In this document: positions 1 through 13,417 of the stretch, piece after piece
Layout: each line of letters begins with the position of its first letter
Position numbering within the stretch: the first letter of the stretch is position 1
Virus record (IMG/VR): IMGVR_UViG_2526164690_000043
Coordinates: 1 to 13,417 of that record
Length of the DNA: 13,417 bases
Reading direction: 5' to 3' (one strand)
Source of the DNA: a virus
Lineage: Duplodnaviria > Heunggongvirae > Uroviricota > Caudoviricetes
The notes under the pieces: model-generated
Databases searched by the model: none
What the model was told of the DNA's origin: nothing
Seen by the model: only the letters and a program-made list of their open reading frames with translations
Program-made: the position numbers and the translations under genes

Positions 1-1230
1 ATGAGCAGAGCACTTAACAAACTGAGCGATACACAGCTGAGGAAAATCAACGGCACACCCGCCCAAAAAACAGCCTTTCTTAATGACGGTGGAAACCTGA
101 GCGTCAGGCATTCAACCAGCGGCCTTTTAACCTGGTATTTCACCTACAGGGCCGGAACGGGAAGGGGAGCACGACCGGAACGGATTAAGCTGGGAAATTA
201 TCCTGATCTGAGTCTGAAAGCTGCCAGGGAAAAAGCGGCACAGTGTCGCGCTTGGCTTGCTGAGGGGAAAAATCCACGTCATGAGATGAATTACACCGTA
301 CAGAAAGCGTTAAAGCCCGTAACGGTTGGCGATGCGCTTACCTACTGGCTTGAGTCTTACGTAAAGGAAAACCGCGTGGATTATGCCGCCCTGAAAAAGC
401 GCCTTAATAATCACGTAATACAGCACATTGGTGCTATGCCGCTGGATAAATGCGAGCTACGGCACTGGCTGGCCTGTTTTGACCAGGTGGCAAAGCGAAC
501 GCCTGTTACTGCCGGATTCTTGCTACAGACGTGCAAACAGGCGCTTAAGTTCTGCCGGAGGCGGCGCTATGCAATCAGCAACGTTCTTGATGATATGAGT
601 GTGGCGGACGTTGGGAAAAAACCGGATATAAGCGAGCGTGTCTTAAGCACCAAAGAACTTGGCGAATTATTGCAGGCACTGGACAAAAAAATATTTTCCC
701 CTTACTACGTCGCACTAATCCGCCTCCTGATTGTTTTTGGATGCCGGACGGTAGAACTGAGGTTATCGGAGATCAGCGAGTGGGATTTTACCGAAATGCT
801 CTGGACCGTGCCGAAAGAACACAGCAAAACGAAGGTGGCAATATTCCGGCCCATACCGGAAGCAATACTGCCGTTCGTCACGCAGCTGGTGGAGCAGAAC
901 AGGCACACGGGCTTATTGCTGGGGGAAGTGAAACAGGAAACAAGCGTGTCGCAGTACGGCAGATTAGCGCACAGGAGGCTAAAACACCCTCACTGGTCAC
1001 TGCATGACATCCGGCGCACCTTTACAACGATGCTGAACGATTTAGGCGTGGATCCTCACGTCGTGGAGCAGCTTACAGGTCATCAGATGCCAGGGATGCA
1101 ACGAGTCTATAACCATTCCCGTTATCTGGATGCGAAACGTGACGCGCTGGATATGTGGACGGAGCGGTTAGGGATACTGGCGGGAACACATGAAAACGTA
1201 ACCACATTGCCAATAGCCAGAGAAATATAA
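1..1230 (+). CDS. int: Tyrosine integrase, P4-like (N-terminal arm-binding DUF4102-type domain plus C-terminal catalytic domain)
   Basis: 409-aa ORF. The N-terminus (LSDTQLRK..DGGNLSVRHSTSGLLTWYFTYR..LGNYPDLSLKAAREKA) fits the P4-integrase arm-binding signature. Catalytic landmarks are GCRTVELRL (Arg), LHDIRRT (His-x-x-Arg) and VYNHSRY (Tyr). Confidence 0.95.
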   Translation: MSRALNKLSDTQLRKINGTPAQKTAFLNDGGNLSVRHSTSGLLTWYFTYRAGTGRGARPERIKLGNYPDLSLKAAREKAAQCRAWLAEGKNPRHEMNYTVQKALKPVTVGDALTYWLESYVKENRVDYAALKKRLNNHVIQHIGAMPLDKCELRHWLACFDQVAKRTPVTAGFLLQTCKQALKFCRRRRYAISNVLDDMSVADVGKKPDISERVLSTKELGELLQALDKKIFSPYYVALIRLLIVFGCRTVELRLSEISEWDFTEMLWTVPKEHSKTKVAIFRPIPEAILPFVTQLVEQNRHTGLLLGEVKQETSVSQYGRLAHRRLKHPHWSLHDIRRTFTTMLNDLGVDPHVVEQLTGHQMPGMQRVYNHSRYLDAKRDALDMWTERLGILAGTHENVTTLPIAREI

Positions 1231-1251
1231 TTTTTTTGCGATTTTTCAGGA

Positions 1252-1313
1252 TGCGGACAACGTGAAACAACGAGACACAACGACGAACAACAAGGAACAA
1301 AATGGAACAACGG
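1252..1313 (+). repeat. Array A: six tandem 10-bp units, each ending in (G)AACAAC (helically phased boxes)
   Basis: ACAAC at 1257-1261, 1267-1271, 1277-1281, 1287-1291 and 1307-1311, plus ACAAA at 1297-1301. The register is exactly 10 bp and the array begins about 20 bp after the int stop. Confidence 0.8.
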
Positions 1314-1512
1314 GTTAAAAATCAGCCATCGTAATAACCATTTGATTTTTATAGGTGTACTGTTTTTTTATACACTGGCGAATCACTCTTAAAAATATGT
1401 AAAAAAGGCGTAAAAGTAAAATTTTATGCCTTTGCATCATAATGAATTAAAAGAGTTTTTATTCTCATTCCCCCTGCTTCTGTAAAACGACCGCCGCCAG
1501 TGTTTGCCATTC

Positions 1513-1566
1513 CACAAACACCCTGACACAATCCGACACAACCCAACCCAATAATCCACCCAATGA
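1513..1566 (+). promoter_or_regulatory. CA-rich tract with 10-bp-spaced GACACAA(C) boxes just upstream of alpA (degenerate relative of array A)
   Basis: GACACAA at 1525-1531 and GACACAAC at 1535-1542, preceded by ACAAACA at 1514-1520 and followed by CCCAA repeats. It lies 30-80 bp upstream of the alpA start. Function unknown. Confidence 0.4.
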
Positions 1567-1594
1567 CTCTTTAAGAAACAACAAAGGGGGAATT

Positions 1595-1783
1595 GTGTTA
1601 AGCACAGATCGCTTTATACGTGAAAAAGAATGTCAGCAACTTACAGGCCTGAGCCGCTCATGTCGGTACCGCCTGGAAAAAGCCGGACAATTCCCATCAC
1701 GGCGTAAGCTGGGCGGTCGTTCCGTTGGCTGGTCTTTATCCGAAGTTCTGGCATGGAAGGACAGCTGCGAGGCAGTTCACTAA
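1595..1783 (+). CDS. alpA: AlpA-family (Vis/excisionase-like, HTH_17) phage regulatory protein
   Basis: 62-aa ORF with a GTG start preceded by AAAGGGGG. RFIREKECQQLTGLSRSCRYRLEKAGQFPSRRKLGGRSVGWSLSEVLAWK matches the AlpA pattern (TGLSrst.Y.l...G.FP.p.kLG.rsv.W...Ev..W). Confidence 0.9.
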   Translation: MLSTDRFIREKECQQLTGLSRSCRYRLEKAGQFPSRRKLGGRSVGWSLSEVLAWKDSCEAVH

Positions 1784-1835
1784 TCAGGCTGGCGGCACAC
1801 AGCCGCCACCCATCCACTAATACAGAGATCTAACC

Positions 1836-2738
1836 ATGAATACTGGATATTCTCCCGAACAAGGGCGGGGCTTCGTTCGTCCTGAAAAACAGAATCTGCA
1901 AAATTTTGCCGAAATTATTCCGGTTATTTCCGGCCTTACTGGCGGGAGTGAAACCAATATTGTTAACGCCAGAGCGTTGCAGATGTTTGATGATAAAAAG
2001 GGAGTAAATTTAACTTACACCCCTGACGGCAATCAGAATATGAGCATTATCTCTGAGTCAGGTTTCTACAAACTAATAAAAACAAAAAGCGCCCCGTTGC
2101 CGGAGCGCCTTTGTGAACAATTAACCTACTGCGCAAAAAATGAATCTGAGCAGTGGGATTATATCAACCATGTGGAGAAGCGCCACAATTGCCGAATAAC
2201 GGGCAAAACAAAGGCCACCCGCTACGGTGGCCCCTCGACACAAGCTACACGTTATCCCCAACGCATGAGCATTGCCAACAATGCCACATTTGCGGCTGGT
2301 GGGCAATGCAATCAGTCTGGTTCAGTTCGTTGCCATACCTGCAATGAGCGCTTTTCCCTGTACTCTTTAAGGAATTGCTCAAGGGCAAAAGCACATGGCG
2401 CGAATCTTTCTGATTCATGCTCTATCTTTCTGCGCCGTCTTTTCCGTGCCGGTGATAATGTTTTGGTCAATTCTTTATCGGTCATTGTGTTGTCCTGCAT
2501 AGCAATGCGCCGTAGTTACTCACACCACGGCGCTGGTGATGGTTACTCCTGCTCTTTGGCCTTGCGACGCTGGCGGCGTTTGATCTCACCTTTAACGGCA
2601 GTAACTATAAATTGCGCCTTGCTTTCACCTTCATCTAAATTTTTTCTAAGTCTGCAACAACATCATGCGGGAATCTGGCATTTAACTGTTGCGACTTATT
2701 ATTTGTTGAACCTGTTGCCATTACTGAATCCTCTCTAA
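1836..2738 (+). CDS. Hypothetical protein. Only the first ~100 codons look coding and the 3' ~600 nt of the ORF is probably an artefactual extension.
   Basis: The N-terminal part contains NMSIISESGFYKLIKTKSAP, reminiscent of the end of a Bro-N/antirepressor-type domain (weak). From ~2150 onward the translation is Cys/Ser/Arg/Leu-rich, as expected for an antisense frame. That part overlaps two better-supported minus-strand genes and their terminator. One extra A in the A6 run at 2135-2140 would give a stop (..CAKK*) at ~2144. Confidence 0.35.
   Translation: MNTGYSPEQGRGFVRPEKQNLQNFAEIIPVISGLTGGSETNIVNARALQMFDDKKGVNLTYTPDGNQNMSIISESGFYKLIKTKSAPLPERLCEQLTYCAKNESEQWDYINHVEKRHNCRITGKTKATRYGGPSTQATRYPQRMSIANNATFAAGGQCNQSGSVRCHTCNERFSLYSLRNCSRAKAHGANLSDSCSIFLRRLFRAGDNVLVNSLSVIVLSCIAMRRSYSHHGAGDGYSCSLALRRWRRLISPLTAVTINCALLSPSSKFFLSLQQHHAGIWHLTVATYYLLNLLPLLNPL
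2204..2232 (-). terminator. Rho-independent terminator of the minus-strand two-gene unit
   Basis: The minus strand reads GGCCACC-GTAGCG-GGTGGCC followed by TTTGTTTTG: a 7-bp GC-rich stem (2213-2219/2226-2232), a 6-nt loop and a T-tract. On the + strand no T-tract follows. Confidence 0.65.
2312..2485 (-). CDS. Small, highly basic hypothetical protein (57 aa from the second ATG)
   Basis: MTDKELTKTLSPARKRRRRKIEHESERF.. with AGGA 7 nt upstream of the ATG at 2485. It lies 57 nt downstream of the RHH gene on the same strand. The 3' end is uncertain, because a frame change near 2318 would extend it to a stop at 2245, just before the terminator. Confidence 0.45.
   Translation of the reverse strand: MTDKELTKTLSPARKRRRRKIEHESERFAPCAFALEQFLKEYREKRSLQVWQRTEPD
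2543..2721 (-). CDS. Ribbon-helix-helix (Arc/CopG/MetJ-like) DNA-binding protein, split by a 1-nt frameshift as given
   Basis: ATG at 2721 with AGAGGA 7 nt upstream. It reads MATGSTNNKSQQLNARFPHDVVADLEKI* (stop 2635-2637). The -1 frame continues LDEGESKAQFIVTAVKGEIKRRQRRKAKEQE* (stop 2543-2545). Joined, these give a typical ~59-aa RHH (beta strand QLNARFP, then two helices). The junction is the A6 run on the coding strand (T6 at 2640-2645). Confidence 0.65.
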
Positions 2739-2740
2739 GT

Positions 2741-2835
2741 TGGTGCGATTCAGTATACACAAAAAAAATTTCAGAGAAAGACTTGAAGTGCGATTCACTT
2801 ACTGATAGGTTAAAAACGAATGGTGCGATGCACCA
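2741..2835. promoter_or_regulatory. Divergent switch region: three operator-like copies of GTGCGAT(T/G)CA plus candidate divergent promoters
   Basis: TGGTGCGATTCAGTA at 2741-2755. AAGTGCGATTCACTT at 2786-2800 (AAGTG-N5-CACTT palindrome). TGGTGCGATGCACCA at 2821-2835 (TGGTGC-N3-GCACCA palindrome). Core starts are 45 and 35 bp apart. The candidate rightward promoter is TTGAAG (2783-2788), 17 bp, TAGGTT (2806-2811), overlapping copy 2. The candidate leftward -10 is TATACT (minus strand, 2752-2757), overlapping copy 1. Confidence 0.6.
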
Positions 2836-2911
2836 AACAACAACGCCCCGCAGTGGTGGCACACATGCAGGGCGTCTAACCACCAACGATAGCGAAAGTA
2901 TCGAGGTAGCT

Positions 2912-3112
2912 ATGAGAAATCATACCATACACCCGCAAGGGCGGGACTCGCACAACCTGAATAAATACATCTGGCGTTTTATCGCCCTGAGCACGGCACA
3001 ACCGCGCGTGATTACCATTGAGGCCACCAGCGAACAGGAAGCACGCCAGCAATCTCCGGCTGGCTGCGTGATGGTATTTGCTGCCCGTATTCGTCAGGGG
3101 GTAGGCTTATGA
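2912..3112 (+). CDS. Icd-like (host cell-division inhibitor-like) small protein, first gene of the rightward early operon
   Basis: 66 aa from the ATG at 2912 (GAGGT upstream). KYIWRFIALSTAQPRVITIEATSEQEARQQSPAGCVMVFAARIRQGV resembles the Icd-like family of P4-like islands (W.F.A....P.V....A.SE.EAR.......F.AAR). The track ORF starts at TTG 2783, which lies inside the operators. Confidence 0.6.
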   Translation: MRNHTIHPQGRDSHNLNKYIWRFIALSTAQPRVITIEATSEQEARQQSPAGCVMVFAARIRQGVGL

Positions 3113-3339
3113 GCCAGGAAATCACACTACAACAGGCAGCAGAACGCGCCCACCAAATCGAAGTTATTTGCGCACTGGCAGAGGATTACCCTGGCATGAT
3201 GACCGACAGCGAATCAGGGGCAATCATCGGCTTACTTAAACGCCTTAGCGGTGAGGTCTGCGTATTCCTGAGCGATGAACAGGAAAGAAGAACGCTTATT
3301 TCTAACGAAAAAAAATGCGGAGGGGTACATGTGCAATAA
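3109..3339 (+). CDS. Hypothetical protein (76 aa)
   Basis: ATGA start/stop overlap with the upstream gene and an acidic, helical composition. No family recognised. Confidence 0.55.
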   Translation: MSQEITLQQAAERAHQIEVICALAEDYPGMMTDSESGAIIGLLKRLSGEVCVFLSDEQERRTLISNEKKCGGVHVQ

Positions 3340-3553
3340 AACCACACCGGACGCAGCCGCCGCCGCGCTCACTACGCTGATGCACGCGCTTATTGATATT
3401 TCTGTTATTGCTGACAGGGCGCATAAACACGCAGCCAGAGAATCAGAATGCATCTTCCATTATTTAACATTTGTGCAGCTAAAAGCCGATCAGGCACTGG
3501 ATAAGGCCGGAAAAATTATCATGGCTGATGTGCAGGAGGTGCACCATGCATAA
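3329..3553 (+). CDS. Hypothetical protein (74 aa)
   Basis: ATG at 3329 preceded by GGAGGGG, so the internal start is preferred over the track start at 3275. No family recognised. Confidence 0.5.
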   Translation: MCNKTTPDAAAAALTTLMHALIDISVIADRAHKHAARESECIFHYLTFVQLKADQALDKAGKIIMADVQEVHHA

Positions 3554-3911
3554 CCTGTCAATTTCTGACCTTAACAGCATTCAGTTTGACGAGAAATTTA
3601 CCGGGCAGTTGCTGGTCAATGTGGAGAACGGGCGCATAGTGCGTAATTATCACCTGCCGGATGGTGCAATTGCCGGAAGCGTTGAAGCATTGCTGGAACT
3701 GGCGGAACGTGCGCGACTGATTAAGCCGTCAACGAGCCATCACGATGATGATCTGCATTTTACCGGATGTATGGTGAGTCACTACGAAAACGGCGTCGAG
3801 GTATCCTGCGAACGGCTGCGTGATGATTGCTGTTTCGGCACACTGCCGGAATTTATCGAGTTGCTGACCAGTTGCGGTTATCAGGTCATTCAGGGGGGTA
3901 AACATGCGTGA
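3546..3911 (+). CDS. Hypothetical protein (121 aa)
   Basis: ATG at 3546 preceded by AGGAGG, overlapping the upstream stop. No family recognised. Confidence 0.6.
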   Translation: MHNLSISDLNSIQFDEKFTGQLLVNVENGRIVRNYHLPDGAIAGSVEALLELAERARLIKPSTSHHDDDLHFTGCMVSHYENGVEVSCERLRDDCCFGTLPEFIELLTSCGYQVIQGGKHA

Positions 3912-4125
3912 TGATCGTTTTAATTCCCTGAAACAGGAATTTTCCGGCGTTCCTGATGATGCGGCTGATGCGCTTTCGTCAATATCTGAAATTATGCGGG
4001 TGGCTTTTTTCTTTCTTTGCACTGATGAGCACAGAGATACAGGGCTAAATATTCTTGATATTGCCGCTAACTATGCTGATTTCGTGACAGAAGCTGTTTT
4101 AAGAAAAACAACGGACGGGGATTAA
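3904..4125 (+). CDS. Hypothetical protein (73 aa)
   Basis: ATG at 3904 preceded by GGGGGT, with an 8-nt overlap of the upstream gene. No family recognised. Confidence 0.55.
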   Translation: MRDDRFNSLKQEFSGVPDDAADALSSISEIMRVAFFFLCTDEHRDTGLNILDIAANYADFVTEAVLRKTTDGD

Positions 4126-4126
4126 T

Positions 4127-4360
4127 ATGCGTGATATTTACCACGAAACAATAGACCGCGCATTTAGTGCCCTTGCTTACGCTGAAGGTATGTACGAAAT
4201 ATTGCGCATATGGCTTGAAACACTTGGCGACAATGAACGCGACAAACAAAAATCAAGAATTGTCACGGCATTAATAACGCTTCTTGAGCCTGTAATAATG
4301 GAACTGCAAGAAATAGATCTATTGCACGACAGATATAAAGAACAGCACACCGGAGAATAA
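4127..4360 (+). CDS. Hypothetical protein (77 aa)
   Basis: ATG one nt after the upstream stop, preceded by GGGGA. Helical composition. No family recognised. Confidence 0.55.
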   Translation: MRDIYHETIDRAFSALAYAEGMYEILRIWLETLGDNERDKQKSRIVTALITLLEPVIMELQEIDLLHDRYKEQHTGE

Positions 4361-4365
4361 AAATA

Positions 4366-4665
4366 ATGAAACTTAAATATTCTGGCTTAACTGCCAGTGG
4401 CAACACTCACCCTAAATTTACGCGCGGCGATATTTACCGCGACCAGTACGGCGGCACGGTAATGATTAAGGGCGTGGCGGGACGGTGCGTAACCTACCGC
4501 CGTGAAGGTTACGAATATGATTGCGTGATGCCTGTTTATCAGTTCCGGCGTGATTTTTCTCTGGTACAGACCGCGCCGCATAACGTGCCCACCAGCAACG
4601 CCAGGGCACGGGCAAACATCCAGAAGCTGAAAACCATGATTAACGGATTCAGGGGCAAGAAATGA
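4366..4665 (+). CDS. Hypothetical protein, possibly DUF4222-like
   Basis: GDIYRDQYGGTVMIKGVAGRCVTYRREGYEYDCVMPVYQFRRDFSLV resembles the small beta-rich DUF4222 pattern seen in enterobacterial prophages. This rests on memory only. Confidence 0.45.
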   Translation: MKLKYSGLTASGNTHPKFTRGDIYRDQYGGTVMIKGVAGRCVTYRREGYEYDCVMPVYQFRRDFSLVQTAPHNVPTSNARARANIQKLKTMINGFRGKK

Positions 4666-6059
4666 AAAGCGCACCGAACTTAAAAAAACAGCCTTACGAC
4701 AAGATGACCGAAGTCATTATTTTTGCGGGTAGTGATGCCTGGGCACATGCGAAACAGTGGCAGGAACAGGACGGGCGACTGGCTGGCGATAATGTGCCTC
4801 CCGTTGTGCTGGCTGATGATCAACTGGATGAACTGGCAGACCTGAGAATCATCGACGAGGGGCGCTATTGTGTCCGGCTGTACAAGGCAGGCCACATCAG
4901 GCCATCAAATATTAATGCCATTGCGCACAAGCTGGCAGCGGCAGGTGTACAGGATGCGAATTACTACCCCGATGGGATGCACAGCCAGAAGCGGGAGAAC
5001 TGGCGCGAATATCTGGAACGGGAGCGCGGGGAAAAGCAGGAAGAAAAAGGCCACCAGCGCAAAACAAAGCTACCGATGAGCGTTGGTTCTGCCGGATATG
5101 ACACGCAACTGGATTACGTGGTTAAGGGGATTATTCCGGCGGTATCGCTTTGCAGCATATACGGGGCGAGCGGTTCCTATAAATCGTTCCTTGCGGGTTC
5201 GTGGGCGTGTCACGTTTCCACGGGCCGCCAGTGGGGAGGCCGCAGGGTGGCGCATGGCGCTGTTCTCTATGTGGTTGGTGAAGGCGGTATCGGCGTTCCG
5301 CGTCGTGTAAAAGCCTGGGAGGTTGTGCACGGTGAGCAGGTGAAAAATCTTTACCTTGTAAACCGTCCCATCTTTCCGGCTGCCCCGCTTGATGTTGATG
5401 AAATGGTTATCGCTGCCCGTCAGGTGGAGCGGGAAACGGGTAAACCTGTTCGAATGATTATTCTGGATACGCTGGCGCGCTGCTTTGGCGGCAATGATGA
5501 AAATGACTCCCGTGATATGGGGACGTTTATCCGTGGGTGTGACGAACTGAAACGACGCACAGGGGCCACGGTGCTGGTGGTTCACCATTCCGGCAAGGAT
5601 GAGACGAAAGGCGCGCGCGGTTCCAGTGCATTTCGTGCTTCGCTGGATGCTGAATACCGGATACGCAGGGAGGACGCAGGAAGCGAAGCGCTGGTTATCT
5701 CATGCACCAAAATGAAGGACGCGGAGGAACTCAAAGAAGCCGCATATGACTTACGCGTGGTGGAGCTTTTTACCGACGCTGACGGGGAGTTAATCACGTC
5801 GCTGGTGGTGGTGGATAAGCCGCGCCCTCCCGTTGAACTGGAGCGCATCGAGGAGGCAGGGAACAAGACGGAGAATCACGCCGCGCTATGGCAGTGCATC
5901 AGAACACGAACAGCACACGGGGAGGCGTGCACTATCGCCCTTCTCCGCGACGATATGAAAAAGCTGGGGTATGAGATGAAGCACTTCCGGCGCTGGCTGT
6001 ACAAGCTGGAAAATGATGGCGTAATCGTTATTGACGGTGATGACGTGCGCCCGCTGTAA
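4662..6059 (+). CDS. Replication initiator/helicase, RepA-like RecA-fold ATPase (AAA_25 type) with a C-terminal winged-helix-like tail
   Basis: 465 aa. Walker A is YGASGSYKS and Walker B is VRMIILDTLARC. VLVVHHSGKDETKGARGSSA is typical of RepA/DnaB-like AAA_25 proteins. ATGA-coupled to the upstream ORF, and the iteron array begins at its stop codon. Confidence 0.85.
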   Translation: MKSAPNLKKQPYDKMTEVIIFAGSDAWAHAKQWQEQDGRLAGDNVPPVVLADDQLDELADLRIIDEGRYCVRLYKAGHIRPSNINAIAHKLAAAGVQDANYYPDGMHSQKRENWREYLERERGEKQEEKGHQRKTKLPMSVGSAGYDTQLDYVVKGIIPAVSLCSIYGASGSYKSFLAGSWACHVSTGRQWGGRRVAHGAVLYVVGEGGIGVPRRVKAWEVVHGEQVKNLYLVNRPIFPAAPLDVDEMVIAARQVERETGKPVRMIILDTLARCFGGNDENDSRDMGTFIRGCDELKRRTGATVLVVHHSGKDETKGARGSSAFRASLDAEYRIRREDAGSEALVISCTKMKDAEELKEAAYDLRVVELFTDADGELITSLVVVDKPRPPVELERIEEAGNKTENHAALWQCIRTRTAHGEACTIALLRDDMKKLGYEMKHFRRWLYKLENDGVIVIDGDDVRPL

Positions 6060-6260
6060 AAAGTGGGGAGTAAAAGTGGGGAGAGTGGGGAATTTAACAA
6101 AATTGAAACATAATTACCCACTTTCCCACCTGTATATACCCAAAAAAGTGGGGAGTAAAAAATATATTGAAAAACATCACGTTAGAATCACAAAAAGAAG
6201 AGGTGGGGAGACGGTGGGTAATTTCAAAAAGTGGGGAGCAAAAGTGGGGAGTAGTGGGGA
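6059..6260. repeat. Iteron-type origin of replication (ori)
   Basis: Nine direct copies of RGTGGG(G/T)A start at 6062, 6075, 6084, 6147, 6202, 6213, 6230, 6243 and 6253. Two inverted copies lie at 6115-6122 and 6124-6130. A triple-iteron block (6059-6095) is repeated at 6227-6263. These flank AT-rich segments at 6092-6116 and 6155-6200. Confidence 0.8.
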
Positions 6261-6814: not shown

Positions 6815-6823
6815 GGTGGCAAT

Positions 6824-7234
6824 ATGACAGCACAAATTGCAGCTTACGGGCGCCTGGTGGACGACCCGCTGGTAAAACAGAGCAGCAAGGGCACACCGAT
6901 GACTCTGGCGCGTATGGCGGTATCGTTGCCATGCAGCCAGGCACATGACGGACAGGCGACGTTATGGTTATCGGTTATCGCATTTGGCAAACAGGCCGAT
7001 TTCCTGGCTAAACATCAAAAAGGCGATGTTGCCAGCGTATCCGGCACGATGCAGGTAAGCCAGTGGACCGGACAGAACGGGGAAACACGGCAGGGGTATC
7101 AGGTTATTGCAGACAGCGTAATCAGTGCCCGTGCGGCACGTCCTGGCGGGAACAGACGCAAAACCACAGGCACACAGGGTAATCAGCCACCAGCGGGAGG
7201 CGATGACCCTTACGGTGATGATATTCCGTTCTGA
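6824..7234 (+). CDS. ssb: Single-stranded DNA-binding protein
   Basis: 136 aa. The OB-fold N-terminus (GRLVDDPLVKQSSKGTPMTLARMAV..WLSVIAFGKQADFLAKHQKGDVASVSGTMQVSQW) is followed by a Gly/Pro/Gln-rich linker and the canonical acidic tip DDIPF at the C-terminus. Confidence 0.9.
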   Translation: MTAQIAAYGRLVDDPLVKQSSKGTPMTLARMAVSLPCSQAHDGQATLWLSVIAFGKQADFLAKHQKGDVASVSGTMQVSQWTGQNGETRQGYQVIADSVISARAARPGGNRRKTTGTQGNQPPAGGDDPYGDDIPF

Positions 7235-7246
7235 GGGGTGGGGACG

Positions 7247-7519
7247 ATGGTACATGACCGCATAGCGGAAGAGCTGGAGGCGAAAGGCTTTTACCGGAGA
7301 GCGTCGGCGCGATGGGGTGAAGTCATGCAGCTGGTGGAGACAGACAAGGAACGGCATCACATCACGATGCGACGGCTGGAATGTTGCAGGAAGGCACAGA
7401 GGCCACCGGAGCCACCGGATAATTACGGAGACCTGAAAAAGGCAGTCGATCGCACTTATGCCGAAATGGGGATAGATGGTGCTGGTGATGAAATATGGCG
7501 CAATTACCAGGACAGCTAA
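7247..7519 (+). CDS. PerC-family transcriptional regulator-like protein
   Basis: MVHDRIAEELEAKGFYRRASARWGEVM matches the PerC/Pch N-terminal signature (A..LE..G.[WY]RRA..RW.EVM). About 90 aa, as is typical. The track start is GTG 7238, but ATG 7247 is preferred. Confidence 0.6.
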   Translation: MVHDRIAEELEAKGFYRRASARWGEVMQLVETDKERHHITMRRLECCRKAQRPPEPPDNYGDLKKAVDRTYAEMGIDGAGDEIWRNYQDS

Positions 7520-7525
7520 TCACAC

Positions 7526-7549
7526 AGCCGGAGAAATCCGGCTTTTTTT
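7526..7549 (+). terminator. Rho-independent terminator T1
   Basis: AGCCGGA-GAAA-TCCGGCT followed by a T-run through 7549, starting 7 nt after the perC-like stop. Confidence 0.8.
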
Positions 7550-7644
7550 GCACCAGTTGAAACGGTATGGCGCATTACCGGGTTTTCGTCACGGTCTGGC
7601 ATAGTTACTATCTGAAACAAACAGACACAACAGAGGAAAAAACA

Positions 7645-7986
7645 ATGCCGATGAAATTTGATGAGATATTAAAACAGCGTGATAAATACCATGCTGACAA
7701 CATGGAGACGATGAGCATCAATGATTACCGCGCATTCCTGGAGACGGGCGCACTGATTGAAAAGGATCAGCATGGTTTTGTGAGATGTGCTCTATCCGGT
7801 GAAATGCTGGCGGTAAATCCTGAACAGATAGATGCATTGATAGAATTTCTGAAAGGGATCAGGACTGAGCACGCATACAGCCGGAGCAATCCGGTCTTTT
7901 TGTCATTTTTTGTAAATTATTTGTTCGTGGTTGTTCCACGTTGTTCACTGACAGGATCGGCATATTTTACCCGAACTGAATCATGA
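7645..7986 (+). CDS. Hypothetical protein; 3' end doubtful because the ORF reads through a terminator-like hairpin
   Basis: ATG at 7645 preceded by AGAGGA. MPMKFDEILKQRDKYHADNMETMSINDYRAFLETGALIEKDQHGFVRCALSGEMLAVNPEQIDALIEFLKG looks coding. The tail (..FLSFFVNYLFVVVPRCSL..) crosses hairpin T2 and repeat array B. One extra G in the G3 run at 7855-7857 would end the protein as ..FLKGDQD* just before T2. Confidence 0.45.
   Translation: MPMKFDEILKQRDKYHADNMETMSINDYRAFLETGALIEKDQHGFVRCALSGEMLAVNPEQIDALIEFLKGIRTEHAYSRSNPVFLSFFVNYLFVVVPRCSLTGSAYFTRTES
7879..7901 (+). terminator. Terminator-like hairpin T2, a near-copy of T1
   Basis: CAGCCGGAGCAATCCGGTCTTTTTG compared with T1 CAGCCGGAGAAATCCGGCTTTTTTTG. 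The stem is shorter (GCCGGA/TCCGGT with a G-U pair) and is followed by CTTTTTGTCATTTTTTG. Confidence 0.5.
7917..7950 (-). repeat. Array B: three 10-bp-phased GAACAA(C) boxes, inverted relative to array A
   Basis: On the + strand, TTGTTC sits at 7921-7926, 7931-7936 and 7941-7946. The minus strand reads GTGAACAACGTGGAACAACCACGAACAAATAA, the same unit and register as 1252-1313. Confidence 0.75.
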
Positions 7987-8022
7987 GTATTCTCGCCCGT
8001 GGTGCCAGGACGCTGGGGCCAC

Positions 8023-8070
8023 TTTCCCGCCTGTTAATGTGCTCGCCAATATTCATTACCAGGCGGGAAA
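8023..8070 (+). promoter_or_regulatory. Perfect 11-bp inverted repeat in the leader of the head operon
   Basis: TTTCCCGCCTG (8023-8033) and CAGGCGGGAAA (8060-8070) are separated by 26 nt. No T-tract follows on either strand, so this is an RNA stem-loop or a protein-binding palindrome rather than a terminator. Confidence 0.55.
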
Positions 8071-8123
8071 ACGATCGGTGCGATTGCTGATTTCCTTATG
8101 AAAAACGGTTGAGTGTTTGCCGC

Positions 8124-8160
8124 GTCCTGGAGTTCCTTACTTAACCCCAGGACTTTTTTT
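8124..8160 (+). terminator. Intrinsic terminator-like hairpin abutting the capsid start codon
   Basis: GTCCTGG (8124-8130) pairs with CCAGGAC (8147-8153), and 8132-8134/8143-8145 can extend the stem. T7 (8154-8160) follows, then ATG at 8161. The only SD-like element for the capsid gene (AGGA, 8149-8152) lies in the 3' arm of the stem. Confidence 0.65.
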
Positions 8161-9318
8161 ATGCCGAGAATAATCGAATTACGCCAGCAGAAAACCGCCA
8201 TTAAAAATCAGATGCGCGACATGCTGGAGAACGCGGAAAAAGAAAACCGCAGTCTTAACGATGCTGAGGGCGCAAAATTTGACGAATTACGCGCTAAAGC
8301 TGAATCCCTCGATAAAGACATTTCCCGCCTTGAAGCCATTGCAGACGAAGAGCGCAGCAAGCCAGGTAAAAGCAGTCAGACCACTGACCCCGCAGAACTA
8401 CGCAACTACATTCTGACAGGTGAAACCCGCGCATTAAGTACAGGCGTTCCCGCTGATGGTGGTTATACCGTTATCCCTGAACTGAACACCGAAATCATGC
8501 GAATGCTGGCGGATGAATCCACCATGCGCCGCATCTGTACCGTGAAGAAAATCAGCAGCAACGAGTTTAAGCAGCTTGTTTCCGCTGGCGGTGCGACCGT
8601 TAACCACGGTGAAGAGGGTAAGGCACGCGAACAGACCAGCCCCCCGCAGATTAACGAGGTGAGCATTAAGCTGTATCCGGTCTATGCGTACCCGCGCACC
8701 ACACAGGAAATCGTGGATTTTTCCGATGTGGACATCCTTTCATGGCTGACGGGTGAGATTGGCGACACCTTCACGGAAACCGAAGAAAGCGATCTGGTTG
8801 TGGGCGACGGTGACAAAAAAGCAAAAGGTTTTTTATCCGTACCCCGTGCAGAGAAGAACGACAAAGAGCGTGATTTTGGTACGTTGCAGGTAATTAAACC
8901 TTCCGAATCTCTGGCGTGGACATCTGCGGACCCGCTGATCGACCTGAAATTTGCATTACGTAAAAATAACCGCAAAAACGCGGTCTGGGTGGTTAACTCC
9001 ACGACGGCGGCAAAACTTCAGAAGGTGAAGAACGCGAACGGTGATTATATCTGGCGCGACCGTTTACAGGCGGGTGATCCTGATACGTTGCTGGGCCTTC
9101 CGGTCGAATATCTGGAGTTTATGCCTGATAACGTTATTGCCCTGGGTGACTTCAAACGCGGTTACTACATTGTTGATCACGAAACAGGTGTTCGCACCAG
9201 ACCGGACAACCTCACAGAGCCGGGCTTCATCAAAATTTTCACGCAGAAATATTTAGGCGGTGGCGTGGTGGATTCGAACGCGATCAAGATTCTGGAACTG
9301 CCACAGGACGACGATTAA
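8161..9318 (+). CDS. Major capsid protein, HK97 fold/family, with an N-terminal coiled-coil delta (scaffolding) domain
   Basis: 385 aa from the ATG at 8161 (the track ORF starts at GTG 8113, inside the leader). The N-terminus IELRQQKTAIKNQMRDMLENAEKENRSLNDAEGAKFDELRAKAESLDKDISRLEAIADEER is typical of HK97-family delta domains. The body carries family-like stretches such as GGYTVIPELNTEIMRML and ..NAVWVVNSTTAAKLQKVKNANGDYIWRD..LLGLPVEY. Confidence 0.92.
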   Translation: MPRIIELRQQKTAIKNQMRDMLENAEKENRSLNDAEGAKFDELRAKAESLDKDISRLEAIADEERSKPGKSSQTTDPAELRNYILTGETRALSTGVPADGGYTVIPELNTEIMRMLADESTMRRICTVKKISSNEFKQLVSAGGATVNHGEEGKAREQTSPPQINEVSIKLYPVYAYPRTTQEIVDFSDVDILSWLTGEIGDTFTETEESDLVVGDGDKKAKGFLSVPRAEKNDKERDFGTLQVIKPSESLAWTSADPLIDLKFALRKNNRKNAVWVVNSTTAAKLQKVKNANGDYIWRDRLQAGDPDTLLGLPVEYLEFMPDNVIALGDFKRGYYIVDHETGVRTRPDNLTEPGFIKIFTQKYLGGGVVDSNAIKILELPQDDD

Positions 9319-9328
9319 CAGCATACAG

Positions 9329-9348
9329 AAGGGGCTTAAAAGCCCCTT
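9329..9348 (+). other. Stem-loop between the capsid and protease genes
   Basis: AAGGGGCT-TAAA-AGCCCCTT, followed by TAGTGTTTTAT (a weak T-tract). It may act as a partial terminator or mRNA-stabilising hairpin that raises capsid output relative to downstream genes. Confidence 0.5.
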
Positions 9349-9380
9349 TAGTGTTTTATGGGTGAAAAATTATGAAGAGT

Positions 9381-9930
9381 ATGGAAATCCGGTCATACGG
9401 AAATCACCACCAGCGCCAGCAACACGCTGACAGGCTACGTTGTTCGCTGGGATAAGCTTTCAGAGCTGCTATGGGGGGAGTTTTACGAAAAATTCCAGCG
9501 GGGAGCGTTTACTGAATGGCTTGCGGCGGGTAATGACGTTCGCGGCCTGTATGAGCATGACCACAGCATGTTGCTGGGGCGTACCCGTTCCGGCACGCTG
9601 AAACTGGAAGAGGACGAAACAGGGTTACGCTTTGAACTGACCCCACCGGATACCAGCACAGGGCGGGACGTTATCGAACTGGTTAAACGTGGTGATATAT
9701 CCGGCATGAGCTTTGGCTTTCGTTCCCGTAAGGATGTATGGGATACCACAACAGATCCATGCGTGCGCACCGTGCTGGTTGCGGAACTGTACGAAATTAC
9801 CGTCACATCCGTACCGGCTTACCCTGATTCCGGCGTGGAGCTGGCCCGCCGCTCCCTGTACGAGCAGCACCCCGAAAAAATGCCGCGTGCGGATAATCGC
9901 CGCTGGTGGGCGGATTTAGCGGGGGTGTGA
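9381..9930 (+). CDS. Prohead (capsid maturation) serine protease, HK97 gp4 family, frameshifted near codon 7 as given
   Basis: ATG 9381 gives MEIRSYG, then runs out of frame to a stop at 9450-9452. The frame opening at 9400 reads EITTSASNTLTGYVVRWDKLSELLWGEFYEKFQRGAFTEWLAAGNDVRGLYEHDHSMLLGRTRSGTLKLEEDETGLRFEL..RGDISGMSFGF.., which carries the family His (EHDH) and Ser (GMSFGF) motifs. The track ORF 9568-9930 covers only the distal part. The junction is at GG 9399-9400. Confidence 0.85.
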
Positions 9931-9931
9931 T

Positions 9932-11146
9932 ATGTGGCCTTTTCAGAAGAAAAAAAAGAGCAGCGCTAGCATGACGCTTGATGAGTTTATGGCGCTGGCT
10001 GGCACATCGAACACGGGGGCGGGTGAGTACGTATCATCGGGGACAGCGGAATCACTGCCCGCCGTCATGAACGCCGTCACGGTCATCTCTGAGGCGGTGG
10101 CTACCATGCCGTGTTACCTGTACCTGGTACGCAATGAGAAGGGGAAGGAGGCCCGAGAGTGGCTTGATTCTCATCCGGTCGATCACATCCTCAACGAGCG
10201 CCCGAACGCATGGCAAACCCCCTACCAGTTTAAGCGAATGATGATCCGCCACTGCCTGTTAAACGGTAATGCTTATGCGGTGATTCAGTGGGGGCGTGAT
10301 GGTTTTCCGGTGGCTTTACATCCTTACCCGCCGCAGTCGGTGAACGTTGAGCAGACAGGTGAGCATAACTGGCGCTACTGCATCACTGACGCCTACACCG
10401 GAAACACCCGCAACTATTTACCGTGGGAGGTTCTCCACCTTCGTTACTCCACGGATGACGGTTTTATGGGGCGCTCACCTGTAACCATCTGCCGCGAATC
10501 GCTGGGGCTTGGGCTGGCCCAACAACGCCACGGCGCGAGCGTGATGCGTGATGGCATGATGGCGGCAGGGGTTATCACGTCAGGCGAATGGCTGGACGGC
10601 GTGAAGGGCAAACAGGCATTAGCCGCACTGGAACGCTACAAAGGGGCCAGAAACGCCGGAAAAACGCCCATCCTTGAAGGGGGTATGAGCTATCAGCAGC
10701 TGGGCATGAGTAATCAGGATGCTGAATGGCTGGCCTCCCGTCGCTTCACCATTGAAGACATCGCCCGAATGTTCAACGTCTCGCCGATTTTTCTGCAGGA
10801 ATACAGCAACAGCACCTATAGCAATTTCAGCGAGGCAAGCCGCGCATTTCTCACCATGACGATGCGCCCGTGGCTGGCGAACTTTGAGCAGCAGATAAAA
10901 AACGCCCTGCTGGTGGCCTCGCCTGTACCTGGTATCCGGTATCAGGTGGAGTTTGTACAGCGCGGACCTGTTACGGGCCACACCTGGCGAACGCTTTGCC
11001 ACCTATGAACGCGGCATCAAATCCGGCGTTATGTGCCCGAACGAAGCCCGCGAACGTGAAGGGCTGTCCCGCGTGATGGTGGTGATGAGTTCAGCCAGGC
11101 ATGGAAACAGGAAGTAAAAATCAGCGAGGGAGAAAAACCGGAATGA
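9932..11146 (+). CDS. Portal protein, HK97 family, with two compensating frameshifts in the 3' end as given
   Basis: ORF 9932-11008 (358 aa) has portal-like content (..HPVDHILNERPNAWQTPYQFKRMMIRHCLLNGNAYAVI.., ..FTIEDIARMFNVSPIFLQEY..). The conserved C-terminus is readable only by moving to another frame from ~10953 (LYSADLLRATPGERFATYERGIKSGVMCPNEAREREGLS) and back at ~11070 (..DGGDEFSQAWKQEVKISEGEKPE*, stop 11144-11146). That stop overlaps the next gene's ATG in an ATGA. Confidence 0.88.
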
Positions 11147-11481
11147 ACATAGGGCGACTGCGTGACAGGGTAACGATTCAGACCCTGAAACAGACCAGGG
11201 ATATAACCGGCGAAATACTCGAAACGTGGGTGGACGGTCACACACTCTGGGCAAGCGTGAACATGATCAGCAGCAAGGAGGCCATTTCATCGGGTGCAGA
11301 ACTGGCGACTGGAACGGTAAGGATATGGATACGCTACAGGAAGGACATCAACGCCACCAGCCGGATAAAGGTCAATACGGGGCCGCTGGCGGGGCGTGTA
11401 CTGAATATCATCGGGCAACCGCTGCCGGATGCCGCCAGGACACGCCTTGAAATTCTTTGTCGTGAGGGCGCGGAAAAATGA
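11143..11481 (+). CDS. Head-closure / head-tail joining protein (Phage_H_T_join, SPP1 gp16-like)
   Basis: MNIGRLRDRVTIQ...ETWVDGHTLWASVNMISSKEAISSG...VRIWIRYRKDINATSRIKV...LEILCRE matches the family pattern (L..RV.I......W......WA.v...s..E........i.IRYR.di....RI.....l.l.C.E). The track start at 11101 is replaced by ATG 11143, which is ATGA-coupled to the portal gene. Confidence 0.85.
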   Translation: MNIGRLRDRVTIQTLKQTRDITGEILETWVDGHTLWASVNMISSKEAISSGAELATGTVRIWIRYRKDINATSRIKVNTGPLAGRVLNIIGQPLPDAARTRLEILCREGAEK

Positions 11482-11774
11482 CAGAAGAACTTATCACCCT
11501 GGAAGAAGTGAAACTCCATTGCCGCATCGATGGCGACGAGGAAGACCAGTTAATCAGCGGATACATTGCCGCATCGCTTGAGGCGTGCCAGATACATATA
11601 GGCAGGCGCTTTGATGACGGGCTGGAGTTCACGCCGGCCATAAAGATTGGCTGCATGATGTTTATCGCTCACCTGTACGAGAATCGCCAGCTGGTAGCGG
11701 ATAACGCAAAAACACGCGTACCCATGACGATAGGCGCACTCTGGACGGCTTACCGTGATGTGGGGGTGTACTGA
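11478..11774 (+). CDS. gp6-like head-tail connector (adaptor) protein (Phage_connect_1)
   Basis: LITLEEVKLHCRIDGDEEDQLISGYIAASLEACQIHIGRRF....IAHLYENRQ matches the gp6-like signature (l.evK.hlRid.d.eD.li..li.aA......y.gr......lva.lYenR). ATGA-coupled upstream. Confidence 0.85.
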   Translation: MTEELITLEEVKLHCRIDGDEEDQLISGYIAASLEACQIHIGRRFDDGLEFTPAIKIGCMMFIAHLYENRQLVADNAKTRVPMTIGALWTAYRDVGVY

Positions 11775-12213
11775 TGCCGTGGCAACCATTAAGACGATGT
11801 ACAGAACCAGGCTGTAACAGGCGCGTTAAGTCCGGCAAGTGTGAGGAGCACAGGCGGGCGGCATGGCGTGCAGAGGATGCCAGACGAGGACACCGCCGCG
11901 CGCGTGGGTACTCCAGACAGTGGGAAAAATACCGCGCCATGTATCTGAGTAAAACCCGTTATGCGTGCGATGCCTTGAGAAGGGGATATATACGCCCGCC
12001 GTGGTGGTGGATCACATTATCCCGATTAATGGCGGTGATGATGTTCTCTTCTGGCCCGAATGGAACCATCAGCCATTGTGCCAGGCGTGTCATAACCAGA
12101 AAACGAAGTGGCTTGATCCGGCAACAAAAAGCAAGCGTGCCGCAGGTGGATTTCGTGAAGAGGAAGAACGGGCCGCTAACCGCAATAACTGGATGTATGA
12201 CGCTGATGAATGA
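11774..12213 (+). CDS. HNH endonuclease (HK97 gp74-like packaging accessory nuclease), frameshifted as given
   Basis: The N-terminal part (11774 onward) reads MPWQPLRRCTEPGCNRRVKSGKCEEHRR...RGYSRQWEKYRAMYLSK. The core, in the -1 frame (open from 11953; track ORF 11965-12213), reads NPLCVRCLEKGIYTPAVVVDHIIPINGGDDVLFWPEWNHQPLCQACHNQKT (H-N-H motif). The junction is the A4 run at 11951-11954, and A5 would fuse the two as ..YLSKNPLCVRC... Confidence 0.85.
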
Positions 12214-12379
12214 GCGGGAACAAAACCGCCTTATCCGTGGACTTATAAGGCAGCGTGACGCATGGAAGACACAGGAAACAGGGCATAAAGATAAAGCGTC
12301 AGGACGCGCAGAACGCATCACAGCGAAGCGATTAACCGACCGTGACCGCGAGGTTATGGAATGTTTCCGCAATCGCTGA
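12197..12379 (+). CDS. Possible small charged protein (57-60 aa) between HNH and the cos/terS region
   Basis: This is the distal part of track ORF 11774-12379, which becomes an independent ORF once the HNH frame is corrected. ATGs at 12197 and 12206 overlap the HNH stop. It reads NEREQNRLIRGLIRQRDAWKTQETGHKDKASGRAERITAKRLTDRDREVMECFRNR. No family recognised. Confidence 0.35.
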   Translation: MTLMNEREQNRLIRGLIRQRDAWKTQETGHKDKASGRAERITAKRLTDRDREVMECFRNR

Positions 12380-12501
12380 TGAGGCTGTATGACGGGGTGG
12401 GGGGCGTTTTCAGGACAAACCCGACCCCGCCGGGCACCGAACGCCTCCTCAAATTTTTATGCACGGGAATTTTTTGAAAAATAATCTGGCGAAAAATAAG
12501 C
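12380..12501. other. Candidate cos / terminase recognition region
   Basis: This is the only sizeable non-coding gap in the packaging module, and it lies just upstream of terS, as in HNH-dependent HK97-like cos phages. A G-rich block ACGGGGTGGGGGGCG (12392-12406) faces a C-rich block CCCGACCCCGCCGGG (12420-12434). Phased A/T tracts follow (AAATTTTTAT, AATTTTTTGAAAAATAAT; 12451-12485). Confidence 0.45.
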
Positions 12502-12858
12502 ATGGCAAGACCACCGAAAGCCCCCGCCTACCTGAATGACATCGCCGTGAAGCAGTGGCGGGAAAAATCGCGGCAGCTTGCGGAACGGGGAGACCTTACC
12601 CCCGCCGACTGGAGTAATCTGGAACTGTATTGCGTCAATTACTCGATATACCGGAAAGCCGTCGCAGACCTTGCGGCGCGCGGGTTCAGCATTGTTAACA
12701 GTCAGGGTGGCGAGAGCAGAAACCCCGCATTAAGCGCAAAATCCGACGCTGAAAGAGTGATGATAAAAATGGCCTCCTTGCTCGGTTTTGACCCGATAAG
12801 CCGCCGTAAAAATCCACCGGAAACAGAAGAAGAGGACGAGCTTGACCGCCTGGAATAA
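12502..12858 (+). CDS. terS: Terminase small subunit, P27 family
   Basis: PKAPAYLNDIAVKQWREKSRQLAERGDLTPADWSNLELYCVNYSIYRKAVADLAARGFSIVNSQGGESRNPALSAKSDAERVMIKMASLLGFDPISRRK follows the P27-family TerS pattern (P..L...a...W..l...l...g.l...D...l..yc......r.a...l...G.......g....nPa........l......efGltP.sR.k). Confidence 0.9.
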   Translation: MARPPKAPAYLNDIAVKQWREKSRQLAERGDLTPADWSNLELYCVNYSIYRKAVADLAARGFSIVNSQGGESRNPALSAKSDAERVMIKMASLLGFDPISRRKNPPETEEEDELDRLE

Positions 12859-13417
12859 GTACGCAGAAGACGTAAAAACGGGCAAAATTCCGGCCTGTAA
12901 ACGGCTGAAACAGGCCGTTAAACGGTACTTTTCGGACCTTGAAAGCCCCCTTTACACGTTCGATCGTGAGGTTGTGGAGCGGTTTATTGCCTTTTCCAGG
13001 GTGTGCCCGCACGTAAAAGGGCCGATGCGTGGCAGACCCATTGAGCTGGAGCCGTGGCAGCAGTTCGCCTTTGCGTGCATCCTCGGCTTTAAGGTTAAGG
13101 CCACCGGACGGCGCAAATACACGAGCGCCTTTATCGAAGTGCCGCGCAAAAATGCGAAATCCACGACCGCCGCGATTCTGGCTAACTGGTTTCTGATTAT
13201 GGAGAACGGTCAGCAGGATATCTACACCGCAGCGGTGAGCCGTGACCAGGCGCGGATCGTCTTTGATGATGCGCGTCAGATGTGCCTTTTATCCCGACCG
13301 TTACGCAGGCGGGTGAATATTCAGGCGCATAAGGTGATACACCCGAAAAGCAACAGCCTGTTAAAGCCGCTGGCAGCAAAAGCGGCAACCATCGAGGGAA
13401 CAAACCCCAGCCTTTCC
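12842..13417 (+). CDS. terL: Terminase large subunit (Terminase_1-like ATPase domain), 5' partial, running off the window
   Basis: The frame is open from 12800 to the window end and is absent from the track because it has no stop. The likely TTG start at 12842 has GAGGA 5 nt upstream and overlaps the terS end. It reads TAWNKYAEDVKTGKIPACKRLKQAVKRYFSDL..HVKGPMRGRPIELEPWQQFAFACILGF..IEVPRKNAKSTTAA (Walker A-like PRKNxKS)..IYTAAVSRDQARIVFDDA. Confidence 0.9.
   Translation, partial: MTAWNKYAEDVKTGKIPACKRLKQAVKRYFSDLESPLYTFDREVVERFIAFSRVCPHVKGPMRGRPIELEPWQQFAFACILGFKVKATGRRKYTSAFIEVPRKNAKSTTAAILANWFLIMENGQQDIYTAAVSRDQARIVFDDARQMCLLSRPLRRRVNIQAHKVIHPKSNSLLKPLAAKAATIEGTNPSLS

Follow-up and report, generated by a model that had tools for sequence, protein, structure and literature searches.

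Is the DNA of the viral IMG/VR record IMGVR_UViG_2526164690_000043 part of a small prophage that was cut off before its tail genes, or does it belong to a satellite that encodes its own heads and takes its tails from helper phages? The whole stretch analyzed here, called the window, has a length of 13,417 nt, and an earlier note had read it as a capsid-forming phage-inducible chromosomal island (cf-PICI). Our analysis led to the same class. The window almost certainly represents 86% of an Escherichia coli cf-PICI that is related to the prototype EcCIEDL933 as a sibling with a swapped replicon and is inserted at the 3′ end of phoQ. The cf-PICI system itself is already known: it was published in 2022/2023, its capsid structure has been solved, and near-identical copies are present in many public genomes.

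Gene content and class of the element

cf-PICIs have been defined as elements of 10–18 kb that contain an integrase, a regulation module, a replication module, and a private packaging module, but neither lytic genes nor a tail module, and the order capsid, protease, portal, head closure and adaptor, HNH, TerS, TerL defines the family (10.1101/2025.02.11.637232). The open reading frames (ORFs) of the window were assigned to families with two profile libraries, Pfam and PHROGs. The window, which is cut, has a length of 13.4 kb. A chromosomal island in O103, O111, and O157 strains of Shiga-toxin-producing E. coli (STEC) is 99.7% identical to it over its full length, and the copy in strain 2013C-4225 (L001) comprises 15,586 bp, within the size range of the family. 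The arrangement is that of a PICI, with int, alpA, DUF4222, a RepA helicase, an iteron-containing origin, and a gene for a single-stranded DNA-binding protein (SSB) all on one strand, and the long ORFs of the window are nearly all on the plus strand. All eight cf-PICI packaging genes follow in the published order, the last of them, encoding TerL, being cut by the window end. The features that carry the assignment are the following:

1 to 1230, plus strand: tyrosine integrase with an arm-DNA-binding domain (Pfam Arm-DNA-bind_3 and Phage_integrase; phrog_1; 398/407 aa identical to the EcCIEDL933 integrase)
1595 to 1783, plus strand: AlpA, excisionase/activator (Pfam Phage_AlpA, E=3e-18; 58/62 residues identical to EcCIEDL933 AlpA)
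4366 to 4665, plus strand: DUF4222 protein (Pfam DUF4222, E=2e-23)
4662 to 6059, plus strand: RepA-family (AAA_25) replicative helicase/initiator, 465 aa (Pfam AAA_25, E=8e-43; phrog_2850 over the full length)
6058 to 6270, plus strand: replication origin with three clusters of GTGGGGA iterons, eight copies in all, around an AT-rich spacer (motif count)
6824 to 7234, plus strand: SSB (Pfam SSB, E=6.5e-16; phrog_44)
8161 to 9318, plus strand: HK97-fold major capsid protein, 385 aa, intact (Pfam Phage_capsid, E=1e-60; phrog_10; 380/385 residues identical to PDB 9gyi)
9372 to 9930, plus strand: HK97-family prohead serine protease (Peptidase_S78), interrupted (Pfam Peptidase_S78; frame from 9400 on identical to EcCIEDL933 at 175/176 residues)
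9932 to 11146, plus strand: portal (Pfam Phage_portal, profile positions 1–286 of 321; phrog_12)
11143 to 11481, plus strand: head closure protein Hc1 (Phage_HCP; Pfam and PHROGs)
11478 to 11774, plus strand: head-tail adaptor Ad1, gp6-like (Pfam Phage_connect_1; phrog_40)
11774 to 12213, plus strand: HNH endonuclease, packaging co-factor, split at 11950 (Pfam HNH on the piece in the second frame; phrog_5956)
12197 to 12379, plus strand: 60-aa ORF (phrog_3173; 60/60 residues identical to the EcCIEDL933 ORF in the same slot)
12380 to 12501, no strand: intergenic region of 122 bp upstream of terS, G+C-rich and then A+T-rich, candidate cos
12502 to 12858, plus strand: TerS (P27/Terminase_4; Pfam Terminase_4, E=1e-23; phrog_83)
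12842 to 13417, plus strand: TerL with a TTG start, first 192 of 553 codons (Pfam TerL_ATPase; phrog_4914 and phrog_9; full length in L001)

The gene calls of the earlier note (int, alpA, RepA, SSB, and capsid to TerL) were each confirmed by both profile libraries, and the profile search that it had named as a check left the capsid, portal, and terminase calls standing. The second check, a comparison of synteny with published cf-PICIs, revealed the gene set and order of the family definition. No tail or lysis family was found with Pfam or PHROGs among the ORFs of at least 60 aa on either strand, and tail, lysis, and cI/Cro-type immunity genes, which would be typical of a prophage, are absent from the window and from the rest of the island in the relatives. 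The window also differs from a classical PICI, as it carries its own capsid, portal, and TerL genes. A tRNA scan and an Rfam scan of the window yielded no tRNA and no Rfam family. Among 50,697 phage records searched, no record covered more than 11% of the window, which agrees with the published view that cf-PICIs are distinct from phages.

Relationship to EcCIEDL933

EcCIEDL933 of E. coli O157:H7 EDL933 (Alqurainy et al., 10.1101/2022.09.08.507074) occupies the same roxA/phoQ site and uses the same core GGACATATTT. Its published size is 15.4–15.5 kb (10.1101/2022.09.08.507074), and, with 15.46 kb compared with 15.59 kb for the nearest relative of the window, both islands belong to the same size class. 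The order int-alpA...DUF4222-rep-ori-SSB-PerC-capsid-protease-portal-Hc1-Ad1-HNH-1792-terS-terL is common to the two. At the DNA level, the identity is 97.2% from 6813 to 13414 (SSB to terL). The int-alpA region is only 89% identical, although the integrase proteins are 98% identical, and the genes between alpA and DUF4222 differ. The identities of the structural and packaging proteins are high throughout: 380 of 385 residues for the capsid protein (98.7%), 175 of 176 for the protease, 333 of 340 for the portal, 105 of 112 for Hc1, 97 of 98 for Ad1, 140 of 142 for HNH (both pieces together), 117 of 118 for TerS, and 190 of 192 for the part of TerL that lies in the window. The cf-PICI class proposed earlier is thus borne out by the roxA/phoQ site, the order of the modules, and an identity of 94–100% to the structural and packaging proteins of EcCIEDL933.

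The capsid protein contains the maturation motif SxGxxAD at residues 93–99, and the published mature capsid protein begins at this motif (10.1101/2025.02.11.637232). The 60-aa ORF is probably the counterpart of EcCIEDL933 "gene 1792", a gene number that we infer from its position; mutation of gene 1792 severely lowers transfer (10.1101/2022.09.08.507074). The gene pair that matches 11143–11774 (Hc1 and Ad1) sets which helper tail fits (10.1101/2025.02.11.637232), and the exact head closure protein of the window is listed in 9834 blocks of a public collection. In the record of LR881103, a related 16.5-kb satellite from induced particles, the sequence begins and ends 22 nt ahead of terS, and from these ends cos may be placed in 12380–12501.

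In Gram-negative PICIs, AlpA serves as the switch by which a helper is sensed and induction is started, and an alpA mutant of EcCIEDL933 lost both induction and transfer (10.1101/2022.09.08.507074). A DUF4222 gene immediately upstream of the replication gene is a conserved feature of E. coli PICIs.

Insertion site and boundaries

Matches to the window were found in 1903 of 5426 complete E. coli genomes, and in 147 of them at least 80% of the window is covered. The L001 copy is flanked by roxA and phoQ; downstream of its terL gene come one ORF of 93 aa (phrog_1561) and about 0.6 kb of DNA without coding sequence, after which phoQ follows. Seven further copies at the roxA/phoQ site (L003, L005, L009, and L011–L014) have the same ending, the non-coding DNA between the 93-aa ORF and phoQ being about 0.5–0.9 kb long in these eight relatives. 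A second site lies next to ydgV/mdtJI, and in the five copies there, host genes follow directly after the 93-aa ORF. In every relative examined, the island ends 0.9–1.2 kb past terL. The absence of tail genes after terL, which the earlier note had assumed with a caveat, was therefore found in the eight relatives as well as in the five copies at the second site.

Alignment with the empty roxA-phoQ site of strain E2863 revealed that the attachment (att) core is a 10-bp direct repeat, GGACATATTT. This core overlaps the stop codon of phoQ, in accordance with the earlier expectation of an att site at the 3′ end of a conserved gene. Measured between the core repeats, the L001 island has 15,586 bp and the EDL933 island 15,461 bp. 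The window begins at the ATG of int, at a distance of 171 bp from attL on the inner side, and its end is about 2.0 kb short of attR.

Another candidate for the att site was CGGTGTAGTTAATGGTGTAGT, a direct repeat of 21 bp with the tandem GGTGTAGTTAAT. It was rejected, as only 65% of the reconstructed empty-site junction was covered and the true core GGACATATTT turned out to lie further out. The 21-bp repeat is located just inside both island ends (L001 7954–7974 and 23307–23327), with the left copy 27 bp upstream of window position 1 and the right copy about 80 bp before attR. The two repeats are probably arm-type integrase sites; the integrase has an Arm-DNA-binding domain.

One chromosome, CP028112, carries two cf-PICIs, one at 2267790–2281206 (roxA/phoQ) and one at 1662014–1682352 (L006, next to ydgV/mdtJI). 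They differ in their replicons, and the identity of their packaging modules is about 98%. Most of the window is of the roxA/phoQ type, but patches of alleles of the second type occur within 9429–13408, e.g., at 11231–11338. These patches reflect either recombination between the two islands or a mixed assembly.

The replication module

The heptamer GTGGGGA occurs 10 times in the window, compared with 1.5 expected copies, and none of 200 shuffled sequences reached 10. Eight of the copies are located within 6063–6260, directly after the stop codon of the helicase gene. This clustering upholds the earlier claim that the element has its own iteron origin.

The replication gene of EcCIEDL933 encodes a 710-aa DUF927 protein and is followed by TAACCCGCA iterons, whereas the window has RepA followed by GTGGGGA. 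This switch of the iterons with the replication gene is visible when the origin of the window (6058–6270) is compared with L003 16172–16541, where TAACCCGCA/TGCGGGTTA follow the DUF927 gene of EcCIEDL933. The iterons differ together with the replication gene and, therefore, initiator and origin were exchanged together. The replicon is an exchangeable cassette; the island is otherwise 97% identical. A third replication module, D5_N/DUF5906, is present on the same packaging chassis in the relatives L004–L011. The differences in the replicon and downstream of alpA are ordinary modular variation.

Comparison with other satellites and phages

EcCICFT073 and EcCIED1a, which are classical PICIs of E. 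coli, share with the window the int-alpA-rep backbone, induction by AlpA, and an origin 3′ of the replication gene. However, they lack a capsid, protease, portal, and terminase of their own and instead use helper capsids and redirect the helper TerS via Rpp. Other cf-PICIs, i.e., EcCIGN02175, KpCIDSM30104, and the D5_N/DUF5906-type elements L004–L011, have the same packaging order as the window. In L004–L011, the DNA identity across the packaging genes is 98.0–98.6%, and the head closure protein is exactly that of the window. In contrast, the integrases, the att sites (one of them next to ydgV/mdtJI), and the replication modules of these other cf-PICIs are unlike those of the window. Published cf-PICI relatives differ in their adaptor/connector alleles and hence use other helper tails (10.1101/2025.02.11.637232).

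The phages HK97 and HK106 resemble the window in having an HK97-fold capsid, an S78 protease, a portal, a gp6-like adaptor, and HNH-dependent cos packaging by TerS and TerL. Unlike the window, they contain tail, lysis, and immunity genes, form T=7 capsids for about 40 kb, and have terS-terL before portal-protease-capsid. HK97 gp5 was not among the phmmer matches of the capsid protein at E≤0.001. Among solved structures, the one closest to the capsid protein in sequence, after 9gyi, is the capsid protein of RcGTA, the gene transfer agent of Rhodobacter capsulatus (E=1.6e-44), and the RcGTA portal is also among the portal matches (E=1.6e-19), behind two closer portals. Small heads are a feature of RcGTA and would also be formed by the window island. 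RcGTA is domesticated and non-replicating, packages random host DNA, and has its own tails, whereas the window island would replicate, package itself, and lacks tail genes.

A separate observation concerns the record LR881103.1 (L015, "Escherichia phage vB_KppS-Ant"), an "induced prophage" record of 16.5 kb with the cf-PICI gene set. In the slot after terL (2036–4333), it encodes a 765-aa protein that matches the tape-measure family phrog_2854 over its full length (E=2e-176) and no Pfam family. This tape-measure-like gene stands alone, with no other tail genes.

Private one-base indels in the packaging genes

Substitutions and indels were called against L001, and whether they are private to the window was judged against 13 relatives from independent genomes. 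The comparison yielded 35 substitutions and 12 one-base indels. In the packaging half, 26 of 30 substitutions are alleles shared with other cf-PICIs; as the substitutions are thus mostly shared, they represent true polymorphism. None of the 12 indels occurs in any of the 13 relatives, several of which share identical intact protein accessions. Besides these 12 indels, the changes private to the window comprise one TA/AT swap within the capsid gene and about 4–7 substitutions. Ten of the indels are located within 4.1 kb (7861–11950), some of them are clustered (7861/7895, 9364/9397, and 9940/9957/9967), and four are insertions outside homopolymers.

The head and packaging module had been called complete, a word that does not hold for the sequence as written: the protease, portal, and HNH genes are frameshifted in the window, and all three are intact in 13 of 13 relatives. 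The protease gene is frameshifted at codon 9 by the one-base insertion at 9397. Its largest ATG-started piece has 120 aa, covers positions 63–160 of the Pfam profile, and begins after the HDH stretch, which we take to hold the catalytic histidine of S78 proteases. At the N-terminus of the portal, codons 3–12 are rewritten by three insertions (net +3). At its C-terminus, an insertion at 10956 (codon 342) is followed by a deletion at 11067, and a stop codon that ends at 11008 lies between them, so that the portal as written stops at residue 358 of about 404. The HNH gene is split over two frames near codon 59 by a one-base deletion at 11950 (A5 to A4). The fourth broken gene is a YlcI-like gene on the minus strand, with a one-base deletion at 2639. 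Two further indels lie upstream of the protease gene (9364) and in the origin (6197). The TA/AT swap at 8967–8968 changes residues 269–270 of the capsid protein from KY to NN; KY is present in all relatives and in PDB 9gyi, and the swap looks like a base-calling error.

Exact look-ups of the 358-aa portal and of the 201-aa HNH fusion ORF showed that both are absent from a collection of 153 billion gene positions, and a 34-nt pattern spanning the insertion at 9397 had no match in viral or metagenome contigs. Programmed frameshifting of portal, protease, and HNH was considered and rejected, as all relatives encode single intact ORFs with accessions shared across genomes.

In E. coli mutation accumulation, indels amount to roughly a tenth of the substitutions. 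The private indels of the window outnumber the private substitutions, the opposite of the normal spectrum, and therefore the indels are probably errors. The same is suggested by the facts that they are private, clustered, and in part outside homopolymers, and that the truncated products do not occur in the gene collection. The region 7861–11950 lies in the stretch that is about 98% shared with the second cf-PICI, which is co-resident in at least one such strain (CP028112). Repeats of this similarity are prone to mis-polishing or collapse during assembly, which also points to error. On balance, it is quite likely that the 12 private indels are errors of the source sequence. The proposal of the earlier note that the element assembles its own capsids and packages itself is supported by the near-identity to EcCIEDL933, but it holds only if the indels are sequencing errors. 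If they are real, this copy of the island cannot transfer itself. With the frameshifts as written, automatic annotation would call the island defective.

Alternative explanations

Several points weigh against the view of the window as an EcCIEDL933-like cf-PICI. The protease, portal, and HNH genes, each of which is essential in EcCIEDL933, are broken as written. The window contains neither att site and lacks the last 2.2 kb of the island, and it ends inside terL, so that the absence of tail genes downstream rests on the relatives. The published experiments concern EcCIEDL933, whose replicon is of the DUF927 type and not of the RepA/iteron type. The position of cos is one that we infer. In addition, 7 of the 112 residues of Hc1 are not those of its EcCIEDL933 counterpart, which could alter the tail compatibility.

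If the indels were real, the window would represent a decaying, non-autonomous copy that integrates, excises, and replicates but needs protease, portal, and HNH supplied by another element. Four genes are broken in the given sequence, and islands do decay; the relative L013 has one annotated frameshifted gene. A co-resident second cf-PICI with a packaging module of about 98% identity could complement the defects, and CP028112 has both islands. Nevertheless, this explanation is unlikely: 12 private indels beside about 4–7 private substitutions are far from the expected spectrum, four insertions outside homopolymers and tight clusters that none of the 13 relatives contains do not fit it well, and the truncated portal and HNH products were found in no public assembly searched. 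An extension of it, namely a defective cf-PICI that spreads by using the protease, portal, and HNH of a second cf-PICI in trans, and thus a satellite of a satellite, is less probable still. If it were true, int, alpA, rep/ori, capsid, terS/terL, and cos would have been kept and protease, portal, and HNH lost, and the mosaic of shared alleles would record recombination between the two island types.

That the element is an ordinary small HK97-like prophage or a remnant of one, with tail and lysis genes just past the window end, would be compatible with a window that ends inside terL and does not directly include the downstream region. However, in the relatives, phoQ or the other att site is reached 0.9–1.2 kb past terL, and the intervening DNA holds only the 93-aa ORF, and the empty site shows an insert of 15.6 kb. 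Moreover, the capsid gene precedes the terminase genes and int-alpA-rep lies upstream, which is the order of cf-PICIs and not of HK97-like prophages, and at most 11% of the DNA is shared with any phage. For the relatives, the prophage explanation is already refuted, and for the window it has a negligible probability. It is just as hard to believe that the element belongs to the classical PICIs or to the P4-like satellites and remodels helper capsids. The int-alpA-DUF4222-rep-ori backbone is indeed common to classical E. coli PICIs, but the window contains the gene for a full-length capsid protein with 98.7% identity to the solved capsid former of EcCIEDL933, as well as genes for its own protease, portal, connector proteins, and terminase, and helper capsid mutants leave transfer of the prototype undiminished.

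Further genes of the island

The remaining features of the window are the following:

1836 to 2738, plus strand: variable ORF downstream of alpA (no Pfam match; weak Ant-like PHROG matches over about 30 residues)
2543 to 2721, minus strand: small gene of the YlcI/YnfO family, broken at 2639 (T7 to T6; L001 annotation; intact homologue phrog_949)
2912 to 3112, plus strand: Icd-like small protein (L001 annotation; phrog_6196, a "transcriptional repressor" PHROG, E=9.5e-45)
3109 to 4360, plus strand: five small ORFs of the satellite backbone (function-less PHROGs only; the same genes are annotated in L001)
6261 to 6814, plus strand: two small ORFs (phrog_1231 and phrog_27268, function-less)
7247 to 7519, plus strand: PerC-family transcriptional activator (Pfam PerC, E=2.9e-43)
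7645 to 7986, plus strand: small ORF, 74 aa in relatives (phrog_1957; end altered and extended by the private indels at 7861 and 7895)

The slot downstream of alpA has been described as variable (10.1101/2025.02.11.637232). The C-terminal half of the ORF at 1836–2738 looks non-coding, and two small genes on the minus strand, annotated in relatives, overlap with the ORF (2312–2485 and 2543–2721). The annotation of this slot varies in near-identical genomes, with no plus-strand gene, a hypothetical protein of 247 or 308 aa, or a 305-aa "Icd-like" fusion. The Icd-like protein at 2912–3112 is named a cell-division inhibitor in RefSeq. PerC/Pch proteins regulate the virulence island LEE (locus of enterocyte effacement), and a PerC-family activator is here encoded on an island that resides in STEC strains; cross-talk with the LEE may be possible.

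Hairpin plus T-run motifs follow the capsid gene (9328–9349), perC (7526–7543), and the 74-aa ORF (7880–7895); in the hairpin after the 74-aa ORF, the last base pair is disrupted through the private T insertion at 7895. A promoter and terminator scan of the window gave counts no higher than in shuffled sequence.

Proposed life cycle and implications

Experiments with EcCIEDL933 have shown that induction of the island by a helper prophage (HK106 or HK446) proceeds via alpA, that each of the packaging genes is required for transfer of the island and irrelevant to the phage, and that transfer is unaffected by helper capsid mutants and abolished by helper tail mutants (10.1101/2022.09.08.507074). 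The capsid has T=4 symmetry, is 47.5 nm across, and holds 15.5 kb, and the fit of a tail depends on the adaptor and connector proteins (10.1101/2025.02.11.637232). A T=4 capsid of this type suits an island of 15.4–15.6 kb, in agreement with the earlier estimate of a capsid for about 15 kb.

From the protein identity of 94–100%, the same induction, capsid, and tail biology would be expected for the window island. Its integrase would integrate and excise the island of about 15.6 kb at GGACATATTT, the site given by the empty-site comparison in relatives. By analogy with EcCIEDL933, a helper prophage of the HK106 type would turn on alpA, and AlpA would then trigger excision and expression. The anatomy of the replicon suggests that the RepA-family helicase acts on the GTGGGGA iterons 3′ of its own gene, together with the SSB of the island. 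Capsid protein, protease, and portal would assemble into a capsid with T=4 symmetry and a size of about 47 nm, with room for only about 15 kb, as they do in EcCIEDL933, and HNH, TerS, and TerL would cut and package island concatemers at the putative cos. Hc1 and Ad1 would then dock tails made by the helper, so that the host range would follow the tail, as shown for EcCIEDL933 and relatives.

The tail-capture biology is already established for EcCIEDL933, which occupies the same site and has nearly all packaging proteins in common with the window. The window opens no new question. It adds a warning of frameshifts in the sequence, the precise att core of the roxA/phoQ site, and a natural replicon swap, RepA with GTGGGGA iterons, on the same chassis, in a family of elements that carry DNA between strains, and even genera, on any phage tail that their heads capture.

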